Below are positions 6,700 to 58,493 of a stretch of 64,000 nucleotides of DNA, one piece after another. The notes beneath the pieces were generated by a model. It made no database searches. It was given only the letters and a program-made list of their open reading frames with translations, and was not told where the DNA came from. The position numbers were made by a program, and so were the translations under genes. The stretch comes from Candidatus Levybacteria bacterium RIFCSPHIGHO2_01_FULL_40_16 (lineage in GTDB: Bacteria > Patescibacteriota > Microgenomatia > Levybacterales > UBA12049): NCBI GenBank assembly GCA_001783805.1, contig MFNS01000001.1, forward strand, positions 257,074 to 321,073, in the 5' to 3' direction. Numbering within the stretch: the stretch's first letter is position 1; each line of letters opens with the position of its first letter.

Positions 6700-7227
6700 A
6701 TGGTAGAAGCAAAAAAAGCCGCTATCGTCCGCCATATTGAACAATCGTTAGCTAAAGAAGTTATAGCGGATACTATAATGAACCATGTAAAAACCCGCGT
6801 TATGTCATTTTTTCAAGGAGTAGATTTGGACAAGGTAGGTACGACTCAACAGGATTTACTGACTATAAAAACATCAATTTACGAACGATTTGCGGATCAG
6901 CCTCGGACTATCGCTAATATCGCTTCTATAAATGGAATTCCAGTCGCCAAATATGAACGTATGGCTGATAAGTGGCCAAGATATGGCAGTGGCAAACTCG
7001 TGCAACAGAAGTGGTATACGCTGAGAGGAGAAAAACCAAATCCTAACGGCTATACGGGAGAGTGCTATGCAGGAGAGTATATAGGAATAATGTTCGCAGA
7101 AGGCGAGGATGAAGGACAAAAACTTTCCAGATTGTATATAGACGGGCAAGAAAAATCTGGACCGCCAGGCATATTCAGCGTGAAAGAACTCAAGTCTATC
7201 GCTGCCGTTTTCAGAATAAAGCCATAG
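6700..7227 (+). CDS. hypothetical protein (175 aa)
   Basis: Long ORF with no recognisable motif. Confidence 0.45.
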   Translation: MVEAKKAAIVRHIEQSLAKEVIADTIMNHVKTRVMSFFQGVDLDKVGTTQQDLLTIKTSIYERFADQPRTIANIASINGIPVAKYERMADKWPRYGSGKLVQQKWYTLRGEKPNPNGYTGECYAGEYIGIMFAEGEDEGQKLSRLYIDGQEKSGPPGIFSVKELKSIAAVFRIKP

Positions 7228-7230
7228 TCT

Positions 7231-9630
7231 CTAGGGAGTTGGCGTTAACGTTATTGTTGGGATAGGAGTATCAGTTGGTGTTGGAGTCGGAGTCGCATCG
7301 GGAATAATTCTAGTTGATGTTTCGGTTGGGGGATGATATTGCGAATCGTCTTTGTGATTATCCGCAACCCATTGATCAATTCCTTCCTGCCAGCGGTTTT
7401 TTCCGTCCGTAGATACCGGGTCATCTTCGTGAAAAACAATAAATTTCTTGGTGTCATATTCATTGTGGTCAATTTCGCTCTGGCTGGCAATTTTATTACT
7501 GTCTTTTGAGACTTTAATTGTTTTATAGATTATGCTTGGCCCTTGTGGTTCTGTTCCTTTAATAAAATATTCCGAACGGGTTGACTGACCGTCAACAGGC
7601 AGCCCTCCGCCAAGAGCATCTATTGTGACTGCAATAACATCGTCAGGTTTTACAAAATTTTCAGAAGGTTTATTCCTCAAAGCCTCCAGGATTATCCGTC
7701 TCCAAATCGGCGCTGCTCCCGTTACTCCGGACGCAACCTGACCCATCGGACTGTTATCATTATTTCCAACCCATGTTGCCACCAAAACGCTTGGCGTCCA
7801 GCCGATTGTCCAGTTATCTCTTTTGTCATCGGTTGTTCCGGTTTTTACCGCGATCGTCTGCCCTGACACATTCAGATAACTGTTCACGCCGAAAGTAATT
7901 AGACGGGCATTATTATCCAAAAGCATATGGGAAATAATAAACGCAACTTCCGGACTAAGTACCTGCTTTTTGCTTACTTCTTTTTGCTCAAATAAAACTT
8001 TTCCCTTCGGATCCGTAACTTTGAGAATTGCAACCGGCTCGCTCTTAAAACCCTGATTTGCAAAGGCAGTGTAAGCTGCGGCTAATTCGAGTGGCCTCAC
8101 CTCTCCTCCTCCCAACGTTAAGGACAAGCCAAAACGGTTTACGTTGTCATTTGTTGGAGCAAGTGTACTTATTCCCATGTTATAAGCCGTAGTTAACATA
8201 TTTTTAATTCCAACCATCCCCAGTAATTTCACTGCAGGCATATTTATTGAACTACCCAGTGCGAACCTTAGCTGAAGAGGCCCGTGAAATTTTCCATCAT
8301 AGTTTTTGGGGACGTAATCCTTTTCCTGTCCGCCGCCCGGGAAGGCAGTTGGCGCGTCCATTATTAAAGTTGACGCAGTGTACCCTTTTTCCAGTGCCGT
8401 AGCATAAGTAATGGGCTTAATTGATGAACCGGGCTGGCGCAGCGCCTGGGTTATTACGTTGAATTGTCCGCCTTTTAACGGAGCATTTGTTTTTTTGTCC
8501 GGTTCTTCGAAAAAATCCCGACTTCCGACCATTGCGAGAATTTCTCCATTCTTGGGATCTAGGACAACGCTCGCGCCATTTCCAACCAGAAGGCTTCTAG
8601 CGTTTTGCACTTCTTCTTTAACAATTTCCTCTGCTTTTTCTTCTAATTTATAATCCAGCGTTGTTGTTACCTGCAGTCCCCCTTGTTCCACCACATTTTC
8701 ACCAAACTGTTTTACTAATAAGTCTCTAACATAAAAAGAAAAATGCGGAGCTTTTATTGCCTGTGTTTCCTTCAAAAAGTCAACATTTGGCAATCTCTTT
8801 ATCGTATCCAATTCCTGTTTTTTGGTAATATAACCATCCTCCTGCATTCTCCGCAATACTTCTTTGCTTCTCTCAATATATGCTTTCGAATTCTGTCCGT
8901 ATGGAGAGAAATAAGATGGTCTTTGGGGAAGACCTGCCATGATTACCGATTCCAGTAGGTCTAAATCTTTTGCCTTTTTTCCAAAATACCTTTCCGCTGC
9001 CGCCTCGACCCCAACTGCCGTTCCACCATAAGGAGTCGCATTGAGATATAGTTCAAGAATCTGATTTTTTGTATAATTTCTGTCAACCTGAATCGCCAAA
9101 ATAAATTCTTTAACTTTACGGGCAATGGTTTGCTCGGAAGTTAAGAGGGTATTTTTAACTAACTGTTGAGTTAAAGTTGAACCTCCGCCGGCTATTCTTC
9201 GGCTTAATATTGCATTCCTGAACGCCCTCAAATAACCCGTAATTGAAAACCCTTGATTTTTATAAAAATCCTTATCCTCTATCGCAATTGTTGCCTCCTG
9301 CAGAGTTTTTGGAATTTGGTCCAAAGCTATGTAGGTGCGATTTTGGTCTTTAAAGATATCGTAAAGTAAGATTCCGTTTCGATCGAAAATTTTCGTAGAT
9401 TGAGAAAAATTACTGGCTGACAATTTTCCGGGCGTTGGTAAATCGCGGCTAAACCAAATAAACATTATGAATGCAACTGCAAAAAGCCCAACCAGACCAA
9501 AGAAAGCTAGTTTGGCAATTTTACTGTAAAGATAGATGTTCGAAGGGTACCTAAGTCGTCGTCTGGATCTCCAATATCTTCCAAAGAAAACCATGAATAG
9601 ATTATATACCACTCCGCTTTGAATTTGCAA
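7231..9630 (-). CDS. penicillin-binding protein 1A (bifunctional transglycosylase/transpeptidase)
   Basis: N-terminal TM segment, GT51 motifs (EDKDFYKNQG, GGSTLTQQLVKN, RKVKEFILA), transpeptidase motifs (SSIKP, SGN, KTGTT) and a Pro/Thr-rich C-terminal tail (TPTPTPTDTPIPTITLTPTP). Confidence 0.85.
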   Translation of the reverse strand: MQIQSGVVYNLFMVFFGRYWRSRRRLRYPSNIYLYSKIAKLAFFGLVGLFAVAFIMFIWFSRDLPTPGKLSASNFSQSTKIFDRNGILLYDIFKDQNRTYIALDQIPKTLQEATIAIEDKDFYKNQGFSITGYLRAFRNAILSRRIAGGGSTLTQQLVKNTLLTSEQTIARKVKEFILAIQVDRNYTKNQILELYLNATPYGGTAVGVEAAAERYFGKKAKDLDLLESVIMAGLPQRPSYFSPYGQNSKAYIERSKEVLRRMQEDGYITKKQELDTIKRLPNVDFLKETQAIKAPHFSFYVRDLLVKQFGENVVEQGGLQVTTTLDYKLEEKAEEIVKEEVQNARSLLVGNGASVVLDPKNGEILAMVGSRDFFEEPDKKTNAPLKGGQFNVITQALRQPGSSIKPITYATALEKGYTASTLIMDAPTAFPGGGQEKDYVPKNYDGKFHGPLQLRFALGSSINMPAVKLLGMVGIKNMLTTAYNMGISTLAPTNDNVNRFGLSLTLGGGEVRPLELAAAYTAFANQGFKSEPVAILKVTDPKGKVLFEQKEVSKKQVLSPEVAFIISHMLLDNNARLITFGVNSYLNVSGQTIAVKTGTTDDKRDNWTIGWTPSVLVATWVGNNDNSPMGQVASGVTGAAPIWRRIILEALRNKPSENFVKPDDVIAVTIDALGGGLPVDGQSTRSEYFIKGTEPQGPSIIYKTIKVSKDSNKIASQSEIDHNEYDTKKFIVFHEDDPVSTDGKNRWQEGIDQWVADNHKDDSQYHPPTETSTRIIPDATPTPTPTDTPIPTITLTPTP

Positions 9631-13566: not shown

Positions 13567-13660
13567 AAAATTTAATTAATGCTATTCCTTAAGACGTCAG
13601 AAAACGACAAGAAGTATTATATCCACATATAAAAACAATTGCAAATTAGTTACCTATTGT

Positions 13661-13709
13661 AGGAAAATTAAAAACCATTAACCTCAAGCAAGTCTCTCCG
13701 GACTAACTT
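13661..13709. repeat. direct repeat copy B (duplicate of the recG 3' end)
   Basis: ggaaaattaaaaaccattaacctcaagcaagtctctccggactaa... duplicates the last ~14 codons plus stop of recG, 670 bp downstream. Confidence 0.7.
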
Positions 13710-13756
13710 CAAATACTTGAGAATGTTCTCTAAAACTGTTATAATTATAGCTTACT

Positions 13757-13963
13757 ATGCCGCACGAACCAAAAAAGAGACATTCACGGGCCAGACAAGG
13801 GAAAAGAAGAGCTGCGATCAAACTTCAAATTCCGGGATTTGCCGTATGTCCAAATTGCAAAGCTACAGTCTATCCGCATACTATCTGTAAAAAATGCGGA
13901 TTCTATAATGGCAAACAGGTTCTAACAATAAAGGTGAAAGAGAAAAAACCCTCCCAACCTTAG
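13757..13963 (+). CDS. rpmF: 50S ribosomal protein L32 (zinc-ribbon type)
   Basis: Basic N-terminus (KKRHSRARQGKRRA) and a CxxC...CxxC zinc ribbon, upstream of nusB. Confidence 0.7.
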   Translation: MPHEPKKRHSRARQGKRRAAIKLQIPGFAVCPNCKATVYPHTICKKCGFYNGKQVLTIKVKEKKPSQP

Positions 13964-14031
13964 CATTCGCCTTTTCAGTACTATTCGTACACGGCTCTGG
14001 CTAACGATTTTGGGCGGGCAAGGAAAAACTT

Positions 14032-14376
14032 ATGAAAACTCCCTTGGATCCCCGGCATAAAAAGCGTCAAAAAATAGTTGAAAGCTTATTCAAAATAGAC
14101 TTTCACAAACAAATAGTTAATAATAATACCAAAGCCGTATTGCGTCATCTTGGTTTTATTGACAACCAAATTGAAGCTGCAGCACCGGAATTCTCTATAG
14201 ACAAGATTAACAGAGTTGATCTGGCAATATTAAGACTCGCGGTTTATGAACTGCTGGTTGAAAAAACCCAACCGACTAAAGTTATAATTGATGAGGCGGT
14301 AGAATTAGCCAAGGAATATGGGGGCGACTCAAGTCCAGGATTCGTAAACGGCGCATTGGGAAATATCAAAATATGA
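14032..14376 (+). CDS. nusB: transcription antitermination factor NusB
   Basis: [25 protein letters not shown] and GFVNGALG motifs. Confidence 0.85.
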
Positions 14377-53631: not shown

Positions 53632-54585
53632 CTACTTATTCCCGCTGTGGAAGGATTTGTGTACATCGCGGAGCTGTTTATTTGTGACGTGGGTGTAGAT
53701 TTGGGTTGTAGCAATATTTTTATGTCCGAGCATTTCCTGAACGCTTCTTAAATCTGCGCCATTGGTCAATAAGTCCGTTGCGAATGAGTGTCTAAGCGTA
53801 TGAACAGTTGCGTCAACCGGTAAGCGGGCAACCCGAACATATTTTTTCACAATTCTTTCGATACTGCGCGCGGTCAACCTCATCTTTTCTCCGCCGTTTT
53901 CCTCAATGATTTTCCCCGAATATCTTATAAACAGGGGTTTGAAATTATCTTTTCGTTCTTTTAGATACCGCGTGACCCATTCTTCCGCCCTGTCGGAAAC
54001 AAAAACTACTCTGGCGCGTCCGCCCTTGCCTACGACTCCAAACTCACGCCGATCGAGATTGATTTGATTATGGTTAAGGCTGACCAATTCGGAAACACGC
54101 AGGCCCGTTGAAAATAGTAGTTCAAAAATGGCTCTATCCCGGATGCCTTCTTCTTTGGAAGTATCAATTGAAGTTACTATCCTGTCTATTTGTTCGCGTT
54201 CCAGAAATTTTAAACTCCGGCTTTCGGTTTTTGGCAGTTCTATTTTCGAAGGTTCAAGTGTTGGATGATCATTTTTAATTAGAAACCGCAGGAGACTTCG
54301 AAGCGCTATCACGTAATAGTTCTGTGTAACTCTTTTTAAGGTCATTCCCTTGGCGTCAATGCGATTAGCCAGATATACCCGGTATTTTCTGACTGTTGCT
54401 AAATCCAGATTTCTTATTGACATTGAGGGCATGTTTTGAGTAAACCAGATATTAAAAATTTCCAGATAATGCCTGTAATCGCGGATTGTTAGTTTGGAAC
54501 AATTTTTTTCAATTTCCAAATATTCTAGAAATTGATTAATTAGGCCGGAAAGGGCATTCACAACCACCGGCAGCTTGTTATCCAT
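53632..54585 (-). CDS. tyrosine site-specific recombinase, XerC/XerD-like
   Basis: N-terminal SAM-like domain and a catalytic R...HTLRHSFATDLL...LGHKNIATTQIYTHV signature. Confidence 0.8.
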   Translation of the reverse strand: MDNKLPVVVNALSGLINQFLEYLEIEKNCSKLTIRDYRHYLEIFNIWFTQNMPSMSIRNLDLATVRKYRVYLANRIDAKGMTLKRVTQNYYVIALRSLLRFLIKNDHPTLEPSKIELPKTESRSLKFLEREQIDRIVTSIDTSKEEGIRDRAIFELLFSTGLRVSELVSLNHNQINLDRREFGVVGKGGRARVVFVSDRAEEWVTRYLKERKDNFKPLFIRYSGKIIEENGGEKMRLTARSIERIVKKYVRVARLPVDATVHTLRHSFATDLLTNGADLRSVQEMLGHKNIATTQIYTHVTNKQLRDVHKSFHSGNK

Positions 54586-54716
54586 ATATCTCTACGCGTA
54601 TTCGAATTGGTAAGCCAACTCCATTTTGCGACGCTTGCGTTGTAAAATGGAGCAGACAAAACCAGAATCTCTATTTATTATGCGACGCGGTAGTCAACAT
54701 TGTCAATTACCATGAA

Positions 54717-55211
54717 TCATATTTCTTTTTGCAGCCTTTTGAAAATGTTTTGTCCCCATTTTTTAACCCATTTAGGGTCTTGCATAACTTCGAGAAAGGG
54801 TAAGTTTTGATAGTAGTAGTTAGTTTCTGTTTTAAAAGCCAATTCAGGATTAAAAATGCCATATGCGTTTTCCTTCAAAGATATACCATAAAGATCTTTT
54901 ATTAATTTTCCCTGTACTTCCTCGTTCCAACCGGTCCAACCATGAACCATTTCTGATCCAAATTGCTCGATTAGATGTTGTTTAAAGTATTCGGAAACAG
55001 GGACATCTTCAAGTAGCGCCTCCATCTGAAATAATGCCTCATTGTTGCCTGTAAAATTATCCATCATTTTCCTGATCGCTCTTTGCATAAAAAGCTCTCC
55101 TGATAGATTTGTATCATCTTTTGGCAACACAGTATTGTCTTTTAATAATCTGATAAATTCTTCCGCCTTTTCCCTCGGTCCCATTTTGGGCCTTGGCTCG
55201 CTCTCAGTCAT
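54717..55211 (-). CDS. hypothetical protein (164 aa)
   Basis: ORF only. Confidence 0.4.
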   Translation of the reverse strand: MTESEPRPKMGPREKAEEFIRLLKDNTVLPKDDTNLSGELFMQRAIRKMMDNFTGNNEALFQMEALLEDVPVSEYFKQHLIEQFGSEMVHGWTGWNEEVQGKLIKDLYGISLKENAYGIFNPELAFKTETNYYYQNLPFLEVMQDPKWVKKWGQNIFKRLQKEI

Positions 55212-56157
55212 AGGAAGAGAATTATAGCAAAATGAGCGTGTTTAAGCTAATAAATAAAACTTCTCCGGGTAAAAATGCTCAGGGGAAAAGGAAATTAATT
55301 GAATTTTAGCCTCAAATAGTCTCGTGAAAATACGACATATTAGTCCCATAGTGGGGAAGTGTATCAAATTTTAAGCCCTGGAAATTAGGGAGAATAATGA
55401 CCAAGGTGATTGAGGCGTAAATGAAATATCAATAAATCTGCGCGAAAAGTTAAAGCAATTTTAACCACTTCTCCATGGATATGAGCCTGGGTGGTGTCGC
55501 AAAAGTTATATTGTACGACATAATTACTTTCTTCTCTCCATCTGCTTAAGTCCATTATTTTGATCTCCGCGGATTATTCTCTTGATATTCACAGATAATA
55601 TTGCTTGGAGAACAAGATATCTACTCCTCCGGCCGGTTGCTTAAAGATTTACCGAGTTATCATCCTTAACTATTAATCACTTATCATTAATAATTATTAA
55701 CACCGCGGCTCTCCACCCCTCTTGGCCGCGTCGCAATTTAGAGCTTATTATCAATCTAAACTCACGATTTTAGCCTCAAAAACATGTGGATTAGCATGTT
55801 CGTATTTTTTTCGATTTAGGTCAATTTATCAATCCAAACTTCTAATTTCAAGGCTCAATCAATATGAAAGAGCAATATTGTTTCAAAGAGAAGAGGGGTG
55901 GCGCGACTGGAGGGCGTCCCGTTGAGTGACCGCAGGGAGCCTGCGACCGAGGACGTCGGACGGGACGAAGGAGCGACAGGACCCCGACCCCATGATCATA
56001 TCCCGTGAAAATTCCCGCATAATCTCGTGAAAAGTTATCCACATTCTGCAAAGCAGAATCCTAAATTAAGACCTATAATATCATAAGCTGCTATATCAAA
56101 CTATATCACGTTCGTCGCTTCGCTCCTCCCCTCTTCCCTGCTCCTGAAGAGTTTAAT
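55212..56157. other. ~950-bp region without a credible ORF; contains a GC-rich island (about 55885-55990) with local hairpins and short dispersed repeats
   Basis: All six frames are stop-dense. GC content rises sharply from about 55885 to 55990. An 11-nt inverted pair CCACCCCTCTT / AAGAGGGGTGG lies at about 55714 and 55892. Confidence 0.4.
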
Positions 56158-56988
56158 TTATGACCTCATGCTAAAGGTTATAAAAACTAGAAAAATAATT
56201 ACGCCGACCCAAATATATTCCCACATTACGCCCTTAAAAAGTCTCTTTTCTAACCAGATCTGGGAAATACCCACCAGGATATAAAAAAGACCGGTTAAGA
56301 AAAGTCCGATTATGGTCGGCGTTGTCGGCCAAAACCATAATATTAACGTGGTCTCGGCAATACAGATTGCGATTAGAGAAATCCATTCGAAATGCAAGCG
56401 GAAATCAGCTTCTAAAGTATGAGTCCAAATAGAATGGATGATTAGAGGAAAAGAAAAAGTAAAGACAAAAAATAAAGTTAGGAAAATATTCAGATGCAAG
56501 GAAAAAACAACATTAGCCATAAAAAAATAGGATAGAAGCGTCACGATAAATGAGACGGTACGGGCAGAGGATAAAAGAGCAATAGTCCTAATTGAAGAGA
56601 CAATAAAAATATTTTCCGAAAGAAGCAGTGAATAGAGTCCGAAAGCATACAGTGATGTCATCCCGATGCGGGTCAAAAATCTGGCCGGAATCAAGAAATA
56701 AAATAGAGCACAAGACAAAGTATAAAATAACGGCAAAATAAAAACCTGAGGCGAGAAATTGTCTTCGAGTTCTGAGCTTTCCGCCCATAAAACAAAAAGG
56801 TCTGTGAAGAGAGCTAGCAGGAAGGCCAGATACATCCCCCCACGGCCAAATAGCTGCTCCGAGAAAAAAAGAGTTAGAGACAAAACTACTACCGTAATTA
56901 TAAATTTTTGCCTCTTGGGAATATTAATAAGAAAGTTAATCTTCCTTCTAATTTTGCGCCAAATTTGAGTAAACTTTTTGTACATCAT
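56158..56988 (-). CDS. polytopic membrane protein, hypothetical
   Basis: About 8 hydrophobic segments; no motif. Confidence 0.45.
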   Translation of the reverse strand: MMYKKFTQIWRKIRRKINFLINIPKRQKFIITVVVLSLTLFFSEQLFGRGGMYLAFLLALFTDLFVLWAESSELEDNFSPQVFILPLFYTLSCALFYFLIPARFLTRIGMTSLYAFGLYSLLLSENIFIVSSIRTIALLSSARTVSFIVTLLSYFFMANVVFSLHLNIFLTLFFVFTFSFPLIIHSIWTHTLEADFRLHFEWISLIAICIAETTLILWFWPTTPTIIGLFLTGLFYILVGISQIWLEKRLFKGVMWEYIWVGVIIFLVFITFSMRS

Positions 56989-57676
56989 CCAATCCCTCTA
57001 TTTTGTCCAGGAAATTGATAATTTTCTCCAATTTTGTCGGGTCGGAAATAACCACCGGATTTAGCGGTTTTCGGACAGCTTCAACCCCAACAGGGATGAT
57101 GCCTTTTTTTATAAGGCGTTCTCTGACAGAAGACAGATCGGCATAAGCAGTCGTGATAATTGCCTTGTCTTCAGCTTCTTCCAAATCCTCTGCCCCACTA
57201 TCAACTGCAATCTCGAACAATTCATCAATGGTTCTGATATCTTTTCCAACAACTATTCTGCCTTTTTGCTCAAATTGATACGCGACAGATCCGGGTTGAC
57301 CAAAATTTCCGCCCTCCTTATTAAAGATACTTTTTATTTCGCTGGTTGTTCTCATCGTATTGTCCGTAGCAGCTTCAATAATTACGCTAATGCCTTCCGG
57401 AGCAAATCCCTCATAAATTACCTCCTGCAGTTTTCCCGCATCCTTCCCGACAGCTTTTTGGATTGCCCGTTCAATATTGTCTTTAGGCATATTTGCGCTA
57501 CGCGCGCTATCTACAGCCAGACGGAGTTTGAAATTACTGTTAGGATCGGTTATGCCCCCGCTTGCCTTTACCGCAACGGTAATTGCATTAGAAATTTTGG
57601 TAAAGGTCAGTCCCCTTTTAAGGTCAGCTGCTCCTTTGGCTCTTTTGATTGTGGCCCATTTTGAATGTCCGCTCAT
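56948..57676 (-). CDS. yebC: YebC/PmpR-family DNA-binding regulator
   Basis: MSGHSKWATIKRAKGAADLKRG is the canonical family N-terminus; the ORF track begins 21 codons earlier. Confidence 0.85.
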   Translation of the reverse strand: MSGHSKWATIKRAKGAADLKRGLTFTKISNAITVAVKASGGITDPNSNFKLRLAVDSARSANMPKDNIERAIQKAVGKDAGKLQEVIYEGFAPEGISVIIEAATDNTMRTTSEIKSIFNKEGGNFGQPGSVAYQFEQKGRIVVGKDIRTIDELFEIAVDSGAEDLEEAEDKAIITTAYADLSSVRERLIKKGIIPVGVEAVRKPLNPVVISDPTKLEKIINFLDKIEGLDDVQKVYSNLAQN

Positions 57677-57710
57677 AGCCCAATGTATCAAATAATTATA
57701 CTTTTTACCA

Positions 57711-58493
57711 TTGACTTTTGCAATAAAACCCTGTATCATCTTTCACAATAATCGTAATTTTTCTCCACCGATGGCACTACTAAAAGACAAAGCTATTCAA
57801 GCAATGCTTCTAGGCGACTGGAAAAACGCAACCTCTTTAAATAAAGCCCTTATCAAAGAGGACCCTAAAGATATCGACGCTCTTAATCGTTTGGCATATG
57901 CATTTACAATCTTAGGAAAGATTCAGGATGCTAAATCTACCTATAGAAAAGTCTTAAAAATAGATATCCTGAATCAAATCGCAATTAGAAATATAAAAAA
58001 ACTGACTGACCTGGGACCCAAGCGAATTTCAAAAAGTTTATCCCCTGTTAAAGGCGTTAACAACATTTTTCTTGAGGAAACAGGAAAAACAAAAATTATT
58101 TCCCTTGTGAATACCGCCCAACCCAGAATTATTGCCCTTTTGACAACAGGCCAACCCGTAGTGATCGCGACAAAAAGATCAAAAATATTTGTTCAAGACC
58201 AAAATAAACAATATCTAGGAGTATTGCCGGATGACGTGGGAAGAAGACTTATTAAATTAATAAAGGGCGGAAATAGATATACGGCTTGCATAAAATCCGC
58301 AACAGAGCATAATGTTTGTGTTTTTGTGAAAGAGACCAAAAGAGTATCCAAATACAGGAATCAACCATCCTTTCCACAGACTGCCGATCAAGACCTAGCT
58401 TTATCAAAAGACAACAGAGTAAAGATAAAAAATTATAAAGATTTTGGAGAAGAAGATGACGATCACCCTTATTTATTGGATGAAGAATCCTGA
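57711..58493 (+). CDS. TPR-like repeat hypothetical protein
   Basis: N-terminal helical repeats (ALNRLAYAFTILGKIQDAKSTYRKVLKID). Confidence 0.4.
   Translation: MTFAIKPCIIFHNNRNFSPPMALLKDKAIQAMLLGDWKNATSLNKALIKEDPKDIDALNRLAYAFTILGKIQDAKSTYRKVLKIDILNQIAIRNIKKLTDLGPKRISKSLSPVKGVNNIFLEETGKTKIISLVNTAQPRIIALLTTGQPVVIATKRSKIFVQDQNKQYLGVLPDDVGRRLIKLIKGGNRYTACIKSATEHNVCVFVKETKRVSKYRNQPSFPQTADQDLALSKDNRVKIKNYKDFGEEDDDHPYLLDEES

Follow-up and report, generated by a model that had tools for sequence, protein, structure and literature searches.

A Conserved Noncoding Locus with a Candidate Xer Recombination Site in Levybacteria and Their Relatives

Results

Conservation of the Noncoding Gap

In a 64,000-nucleotide stretch of the genome of Candidatus Levybacteria bacterium RIFCSPHIGHO2_01_FULL_40_16 (hereafter, the window), positions 55212-56157 form a gap between genes, which lies downstream of yebC and a gene for a DUF5656 membrane protein and upstream of a gene for a Xer-family tyrosine recombinase. 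With a probability of roughly one half, this gap is a conserved cis-acting DNA locus, neither a gene nor, probably, a structured RNA, and holds the recombination site of the adjacent Xer protein. The candidate for the Xer binding and recombination site is an imperfect inverted repeat, ATGTCGTACAA-TATAAC-TTTTGCGACAC, at 55494-55521 on the minus strand, in which two 11-bp arms are separated by a spacer of 6 bp (11-6-11). This 28-bp sequence is designated the core. Because the genomes of the Candidate Phyla Radiation (CPR) are small and tightly packed, a noncoding stretch of 0.9 kb that is maintained clade-wide must serve something important.

The first-pass annotation, made from the letters of the window, had described a region of ~945 bp without open reading frames (ORFs) and a Xer-like gene ~600 bp away. 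Both descriptions are correct. The overlapping ORFs in 55212-56157 are all 67 amino acids or shorter in the ORF listing of the window, and the gap is the largest between ORFs of at least 140 amino acids in the 64 kb. The xer gene starts 627 bp from the gap, and its product matches Phage_integrase with an E-value of 2e-42.

The relatives were collected in two ways. Sixty-two loci from Levybacteria genomes were fetched via homologues of DUF5656, and metagenome contigs were scanned with a 24-position pattern of the core, which yielded at least 120 further loci. The gap downstream of yebC-DUF5656 and upstream of the Xer-family gene is kept in more than 170 loci from Levybacteria and more distant relatives. 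In nearly all of the 62 genome loci, 700-1000 bp without ORFs of 90 amino acids or longer are found immediately 3' of DUF5656. Four conserved blocks, A to D, occur in a common order in 49-54 of these 62 loci, and their nucleotide identity (~70-85%) is higher than the identity of the flanking protein (~50-60%). In the metagenome loci with a long enough flank, the core always points the same way, with yebC-DUF5656 upstream of it and the Xer gene downstream. The identity of DUF5656 in the metagenome set goes down to 27-40%, and that of Xer is 31-92%, mostly 45-90%; these low values indicate that the locus reaches well beyond Levybacteria. Comparison of the element with phages and plasmids by blastn gave no matches, and the core pattern had no match in viral contigs. 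A single perfect 11-nt inverted repeat, such as the one in this gap, is expected by chance with a probability of ~0.1 per 1 kb by a rough estimate, and is not rare. The feature above chance is the conservation, in that nearly every related locus has both the gap and its sequence blocks.

Core Site

The best-conserved piece of the element lies in block C (GTCGYANAATAWWACTTTTRCGAC, 55496-55519 on the minus strand); extended by two bases at either end, it becomes the 28-bp core. The core consensus is ATGTCGCACAA-TAATAC-TTTTACGACGT, the arms of which are symmetric at 8 of 11 positions. Among 113 distinct sequences, 19 of the inner 24 positions are invariant, an invariance that is partly selected for, as 120 of the loci were retrieved with these 24 positions as the pattern. 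When up to five mismatches are allowed, a single copy of the core is found in the window and in each of 173 loci. Second copies that flank inserted genes, in the manner of integrative mobile elements exploiting Xer (IMEX) or of integrons, were sought among the loci, and none was found.

The core matches 14 of 28 positions of the dif site of Escherichia coli and 16 of 28 positions of that of Bacillus subtilis, with both sequences compared being A/T-rich. Archaeal dif sites were accepted at matches of 14-18 of 28 positions, a range that includes these counts, with intergenic location, single copy and high conservation as the criteria (Cortez et al., PMC2958812).

Past the core, at about +50 to +120 nt, short AT-rich tandem repeats with a period of 7-8 nt are present in related loci, at least eight in number. 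They are lineage-specific, with units such as ATTCATA, AAGATCA, and TTAACAA. No clear array of this kind is seen in the window.

Xer Recombinase and Half-Sites Upstream of Its Gene

The recombinase gene (53632-54585, minus strand) encodes 317 amino acids, and the R, K, HxxR, H, and Y catalytic motifs can be read in its translation. The protein scores 248 bits against the curated model of XerC, 247 bits against XerD, and 211 bits against XerA (cut-off 220), all below the cut-offs. Its score against XerS is 134.8 bits, where the cut-off is 267, and there is no XerH among the 11 families listed for the protein. The window contains only one copy of the gene. In every locus with sufficient flank, the core is upstream of xer and in the same orientation, at a distance of 0.2-5.5 kb.

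The arms of the core recur in front of xer. The xer 5' region (54619-54706, minus strand) contains a promoter-like site TTGACA-N18-CATAAT (54706-54677), a 34-nt palindrome (54619-54652), and two direct half-sites, GTCGCATAA at 54678-54686 and GTCGCAAAA at 54624-54632, which overlap the promoter-like site and the palindrome. Among 105 loci, 90 have a left-arm half-site GTCGYAHAW in the 260 nt that precede the xer start. The half-sites upstream of xer are nearly all in one orientation (107 forward versus 6 reverse), and their density is 3.84 per kb versus 0.084 per kb in the background (~46-fold). The xer starts were extrapolated from tblastn alignments, and offsets of half-sites near zero are approximate. 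Even where other genes put xer up to 5.5 kb away from the core, the half-sites stay with xer. In a distant clade, the half-site abuts a TTGACA box. Since the same half-site occurs as an inverted pair with 6-bp spacing in the core and as copies in the promoter of the recombinase gene, it is most simply explained as the binding site of the recombinase. Judged from these sequence patterns, the core looks like the target of the neighbouring Xer, and xer is probably autoregulated.

If so, two Xer protomers would bind the inverted arms of the core and exchange strands at the spacer with a second copy of the core, most plausibly that on the sister chromosome, as at dif-type sites. Xer monomers bound to the half-sites in the promoter would autoregulate xer. 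The flanking clusters would serve as sites for accessory or regulatory proteins; candidates are the TGATATAG repeats, TATTATAGG, the DnaA box, the paired TTTTCACR, AATACGAA, GAGGCTAA, and the purine boxes.

Motif Clusters around the Core

The whole conserved ORF-free element (55212-56157, minus strand) has a fixed orientation relative to the flanking genes, between DUF5656 and a 164-aa orphan gene. All motifs described here are read on the minus strand unless noted. Closest to DUF5656 is motif R, two tandem copies of [G/T]TGATATAG 10 bp apart (56091-56109); 103 of 121 loci have TGATATAG, with 162 copies forward and 3 reverse. Motif T is TATTATAGG at 56072-56080, with a related copy CCCCACTATGGGAC at 55343-55356, and in some genomes it is inverted as CCTATAAT (130 forward versus 69 reverse). 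A small hairpin of variable sequence (56043-56059) precedes a consensus DnaA box, TGTGGATAAC, at 56034-56043 (on the plus strand, TTATCCACA at 56035-56043). It is the sole perfect DnaA box in the window. Motif F consists of two TTTTCACR, 22 nt from start to start (56003-56033), and a third copy lies at 55322-55330. In the wider set of 121 loci, TGTGGATAA is present in 82 and TTTTCACR in ~78.

Block B (55737-55813) contains CGAAAAAAATACGAA at 55799-55813, TGAGGCTAAAAT at 55767-55778, and a hairpin-like TTTAGATTGAT..TCTAAA at 55737-55760. A second copy of TGAGGCTAAAAT is at 55303-55314. The conserved purine box AAGAGGGGTGGAGAG follows at 55709-55723, and related purine boxes are seen at 56125-56138, 55527-55539, and 55465-55474. 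Seven relatives have an ORF of ~200 amino acids between DUF5656 and the element (at ~6850-7550 in each of L027, L035, L040, L044, L048, L052, and L063). The 5' purine box remains with the element in these loci, and thus marks the element boundary.

In block A of nine loci, TATTATAGGAC is inverted (GTCCTATAAT), duplicated, or included in a perfect palindrome TCCTATAAT-AATTATAGGA, and some of them thereby gain a textbook promoter, TTGATA-N18-TATAAT. Block A was considered as a promoter and rejected, as TTGATA and TATTAT are 13-14 bp apart in most genomes and a good TTGATA-N18-TATAAT is present in few.

Short repeats are concentrated in the gap. Both copies of TGARGCTAA in the window and three of its seven copies of TTTTCACRR are within it. 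TCYCGTGAAAA is present three times (55320, 56001, and 56023), as the first-pass annotation had listed. The same annotation gave two copies of ATTTTAGCCTCAAA; their number and the position 55303 are right, while the second copy starts at 55767 and not at 55763. The exact 11-nt inverted repeat that it pointed out is also present, as CCACCCCTCTT at 55713-55723 and AAGAGGGGTGG at 55891-55901, with 167 nt between the arms. One arm falls in the conserved purine box, and the C-rich partner (55888-55901) is found in near relatives only. The proposal of an att-type, recombinase-associated region is right in spirit, for the 28-bp repeat at 55494-55521 and not for the 11-nt repeat. Each locus has a single full site, and in no locus is block B turned round relative to blocks A and C, so that the invertible switch, which had been proposed along with it, is not supported.

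GC-Rich Island

The segment that was conspicuous for its composition, the GC-rich island at 55885-55995 (no strand assigned), is the GC-rich part of a variable spacer between blocks A and B (55814-56002). Its reported GC richness is real: the GC content is 0.69 at 55900-55999 and ~0.39 around it in 100-nt windows. The reported hairpin is real as well, with a loop of three nucleotides (CGCAGG-GAG-CCTGCG) instead of the GAGC given. In relatives, the spacer between A and B varies in length from 50 to 202 nt and in GC content from 0.30 to 0.67, and only among the nearest relatives can a resemblance in it be recognised. It is inferred that the island is a lineage-specific, non-conserved spacer or insertion between motif clusters, and probably has no role of its own. 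This is a caution for AT-rich genomes: an island that stands out by its GC content and its hairpins can be less conserved than any other part of the conserved element around it.

In five loci of one sub-clade, the spacer contains a long palindrome, GTCCGCC...GGCGGAC, with 10 compensatory pairs. Its folding z-scores are -4.6 to -9 on either strand, and it resembles an inverted-repeat element that has been inserted. Two contigs from the same metagenome sample, the end of L005 and the start of L008, are broken exactly inside the GC island (~55915). This is an assembly break, possibly caused by a drop in coverage at the GC-rich stretch.

Neighbouring Genes

The upstream flank of the gap is the DUF5656 membrane-protein gene (56158-56988, minus strand), which overlaps yebC (56948-57739, minus strand) by 41 nt (56948-56988). 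The pair is syntenic in all loci, which suggests that the two genes are co-transcribed. Between the element and xer, there is a near-orphan gene of 164 amino acids (54717-55211, minus strand), for which the homologue search gave 2 homologues; xer is the next gene downstream of it. The gene content between the core and xer ranges from 0 to ~5 kb among relatives. Elsewhere in the window, the second-largest stretch without an ORF of at least 140 amino acids is 13567-14372 (~800 bp).

Discussion

Chromosomal Position and the Long Flanks

Several observations weigh against a dif-like site of Xer. The first is its position. The sign of the GC and AT skews at third codon positions (GC3 and AT3) is constant on both flanks when more than 100 loci are pooled over ~±10 kb, and in the genome of the window it is constant from ~-16 kb to ~+25 kb. 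Separated by gene orientation and expressed on the strand of the element, the GC3 skew is +0.13 and +0.21 on the left and +0.12 and +0.15 on the right, with AT3 negative throughout. The absence of a change in third-position skew places the site within a replichore, at neither the origin nor the terminus, at that scale. A flip of the plain GC skew at ~53 kb was rejected as a marker of the terminus or dif, because it tracks the gene strand and the orientation-separated third-position skew has no flip. Validated dif sites of Legionella lie up to 35-79 kb from the skew inflection (PMC9765430), so that the skew test counts against dif here and is not decisive. Second, dif needs only ~28 bp, which leaves ~850 bp of extra conserved motifs unaccounted for. 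Third, the half-site could be recognised by a regulator other than Xer. Fourth, at the base pair that flanks GTCG/CGAC in the core, T-A is found in 46 sequences, T-G in 56, C-G in 32, and C-A in 3, and the excess of T-G over C-A is also the expectation for an RNA hairpin.

A more novel reading is a chromosomal Xer system that acts away from the terminus. In such a system, the core and ~0.85 kb of conserved accessory sequence (TGATATAG, the TTTTCACR pair, the DnaA box, and GAGGCTAA) would work as a nucleoprotein filter similar to those of cer and psi, sister copies would recombine independently of FtsK and of position, and Xer would be autoregulated via the half-sites in its promoter. This proposal, or otherwise a new large, weakly structured RNA/DNA element, is put forward tentatively, as an unlikely reading. 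If the filter exists, dimer resolution would be organised in a new way that is specific to Levybacteria and to their relatives within the CPR.

RNA or DNA

A long noncoding RNA of ~0.9 kb, transcribed from the minus strand in the direction of the flanking genes, is a rival explanation, and it is considered unlikely. Such an RNA would have conserved single-stranded blocks between variable hairpins, the core would form a hairpin whose 12-nt loop is conserved, and the island would be an expansion stem. The nucleotide conservation of the blocks (~80%) exceeding that of the flanking protein (~50-55%) fits such an RNA, and so do the fixed orientations of motifs R, D, and F and of the element as a whole and the presence of hairpins of variable sequence at conserved positions. 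The spacer stem of one sub-clade, with its 10 compensatory pairs, and the U-G excess at the pair next to GTCG/CGAC are further points for RNA. The sub-clade stem is, on the other hand, equally stable on both strands and absent from other loci, and the two pairs neighbouring the GTCG/CGAC pair show the opposite wobble bias, so that the totals are 81 versus 85.

Homology searches do not favour RNA. No family was found with Rfam 15 on both strands of the window and 13 relatives, with both gathering and E-value thresholds, where the only matches were junk matches to small nucleolar RNAs, and ARAGORN detected only a tRNA-Val. The signatures of transfer-messenger RNA, RNase P, and the signal recognition particle RNA were compared by eye with the conserved blocks, and there was no convincing match. 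No intrinsic terminator was found.

The structural signals are weak as well. For blocks A and B, RNAalifold predicts no consensus pair at all, and for C and D it predicts 4-8, with a structure conservation index of 0-0.44 (0.21-0.44 in C and D). In six sub-regions of 60 loci, mean folding z-scores are -0.1 to -1.5 without strand preference. The spacer has a mean of -0.9 on both strands; for the island of the window, the plus strand gives -1.5 and the minus strand -2.0. In the putative helix of the core, 5 of 10 candidate pairs are invariant, and at each of the remaining pairs 20-52% of the 113 sequences lack pairing. When the columns were shifted by two as a control, covariation was as high as in the core helix. 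Two long-range helices were rejected. The one between the purine box and the C-run reflects trivial purine/pyrimidine complementarity and is inconsistent across relatives, and the one between TTAGCYTC and GARGCTAA shows no covariation in 14 loci.

The arrangement of motifs also differs from that expected for a folded RNA. The order is R-T-D-F-F-K-G followed by the core in Levybacteria versus t-F-F-D-R followed by the core in a distant clade. Motifs T and G are found both ways round (130 versus 69 for T, 167 versus 76 for G), and there is no g/G covariation. The interpretation of the island as a structured noncoding RNA is thus not borne out, as neither its sequence nor its length is conserved and the blocks are nearly free of consensus structure. 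What is conserved is mainly the primary sequence, probably read as DNA, and an unstructured transcript may be made from it.

Other Explanations

The palindrome and the half-sites may instead be operators of an ordinary transcription factor, in which case the element would be a regulatory hub without recombination, and the factor would control xer and perhaps also a transcript that starts at the core. The half-sites do overlap the promoter elements of xer, the core of the distant clade is directly adjoined by a perfect TATAAT, and the site is away from a skew switch. This explanation is rather improbable, given that the 11-6-11 geometry and the partial similarity to dif suit the core sites of tyrosine recombinases, that yebC is the only conserved regulator gene travelling with the locus, and that ~0.9 kb kept clade-wide far exceeds a typical operator region.

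A replication origin, or a DnaA-controlled element such as datA or DARS, is very unlikely. The DnaA box is kept in 92 of 129 loci and always faces the same way, short direct repeats are arranged at helical spacing, and there are AT-rich stretches with lineage-specific tandem repeats, all of which would be at home in an origin. Against this, only a single consensus DnaA box is present, the sign of the third-position skew is constant across the element, and the upstream genes face the element rather than away from it. Neither dnaA nor ftsK was found in the window or in any of the loci, which reach at most ~7-13 kb on each side of the core. The skew, the gene direction, the lone DnaA box, and the lack of dnaA nearby led to the rejection of oriC. 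About 11 kb past the high end of the window, a divergent gene pair adjoins the gene for DnaB helicase (L191, 5225-5313), and the sign of the third-position skew is constant there.

A decayed or frameshifted gene, or a group of unannotated small genes, for which small ORFs of 30-67 amino acids and one 56-aa ORF called by a gene finder in one assembly might speak, can practically be dismissed: the gap is free of ORFs in nearly all relatives (more than 100 genomes), none of 8 small ORFs has a Pfam match, the apparent start codon in the most conserved block varies (ATG, ACG, and GTG), one relative (L012) has a 1-nt gap in that block just 3' of the core, and the blocks are conserved at all three codon positions.

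Significance

In the literature searched, no description of Xer/dif biology in Patescibacteria was found. If the 28-bp site is the target of Xer, it supplies a recombination site that can be tested, together with an autoregulatory circuit, in an uncultivated lineage, and the core would also be a useful landmark for genome curation. Its location away from a skew switch, together with the motif clusters that include a DnaA box of invariant orientation, would then raise the question of how chromosome dimers are resolved here, or what other role a conserved Xer has.

Comparison with Known Systems

Large noncoding RNAs such as OLE, GOLLD, ROOL, and HEARO are similar to the element in size, intergenic location, and clade-wide conservation. 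The element differs from them in having no Rfam match, no conserved secondary structure, no covariation, and no thermodynamic signal.

The cer and psi sites of plasmids, where a Xer core has ~180 bp of accessory flank on one side, offer a parallel to the long flanks. By analogy with them, the long conserved flank could bind accessory proteins and permit a reaction that is independent of position and selective for resolution. The element differs from cer and psi in being chromosomal, in having ~600 bp upstream and ~250 bp downstream of the core, and in that no boxes for ArgR, PepA, or ArcA were recognised in it.

In single-recombinase Xer systems, a dif site near the xer gene is a hallmark (PMC5357621). 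XerS/difSL of streptococci and lactococci and XerH/difH of Helicobacter and Campylobacter resemble the present locus in having one Xer gene nearby and an imperfect inverted repeat, single-copy in each locus here, that is linked to the gene and the arms of which are A/T-rich beside the spacer. The recombinase here has 317 amino acids, not ~355 as XerS, and is below the cut-off of the XerS model. The site is of the 11-6-11 type, in contrast to the 31-bp sites with an 11-bp spacer of the XerS and XerH modules. It also differs from these modules in lying 0.2-5.5 kb from xer, sometimes with genes between, within ~0.9 kb of conserved sequence and without a skew switch.

XerCD/dif and the archaeal XerA/dif share with the present site the length of 28 bp, the 11-6-11 structure, the intergenic location, the single copy per locus, and the high conservation, and the protein is near XerA (211 bits versus the cut-off of 220). 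Those sites lie in the terminus, away from xer, whereas the core is linked to xer with no skew inflection nearby. Not classed here as a confirmed dif, the site may well work like those of the Xer/dif type.

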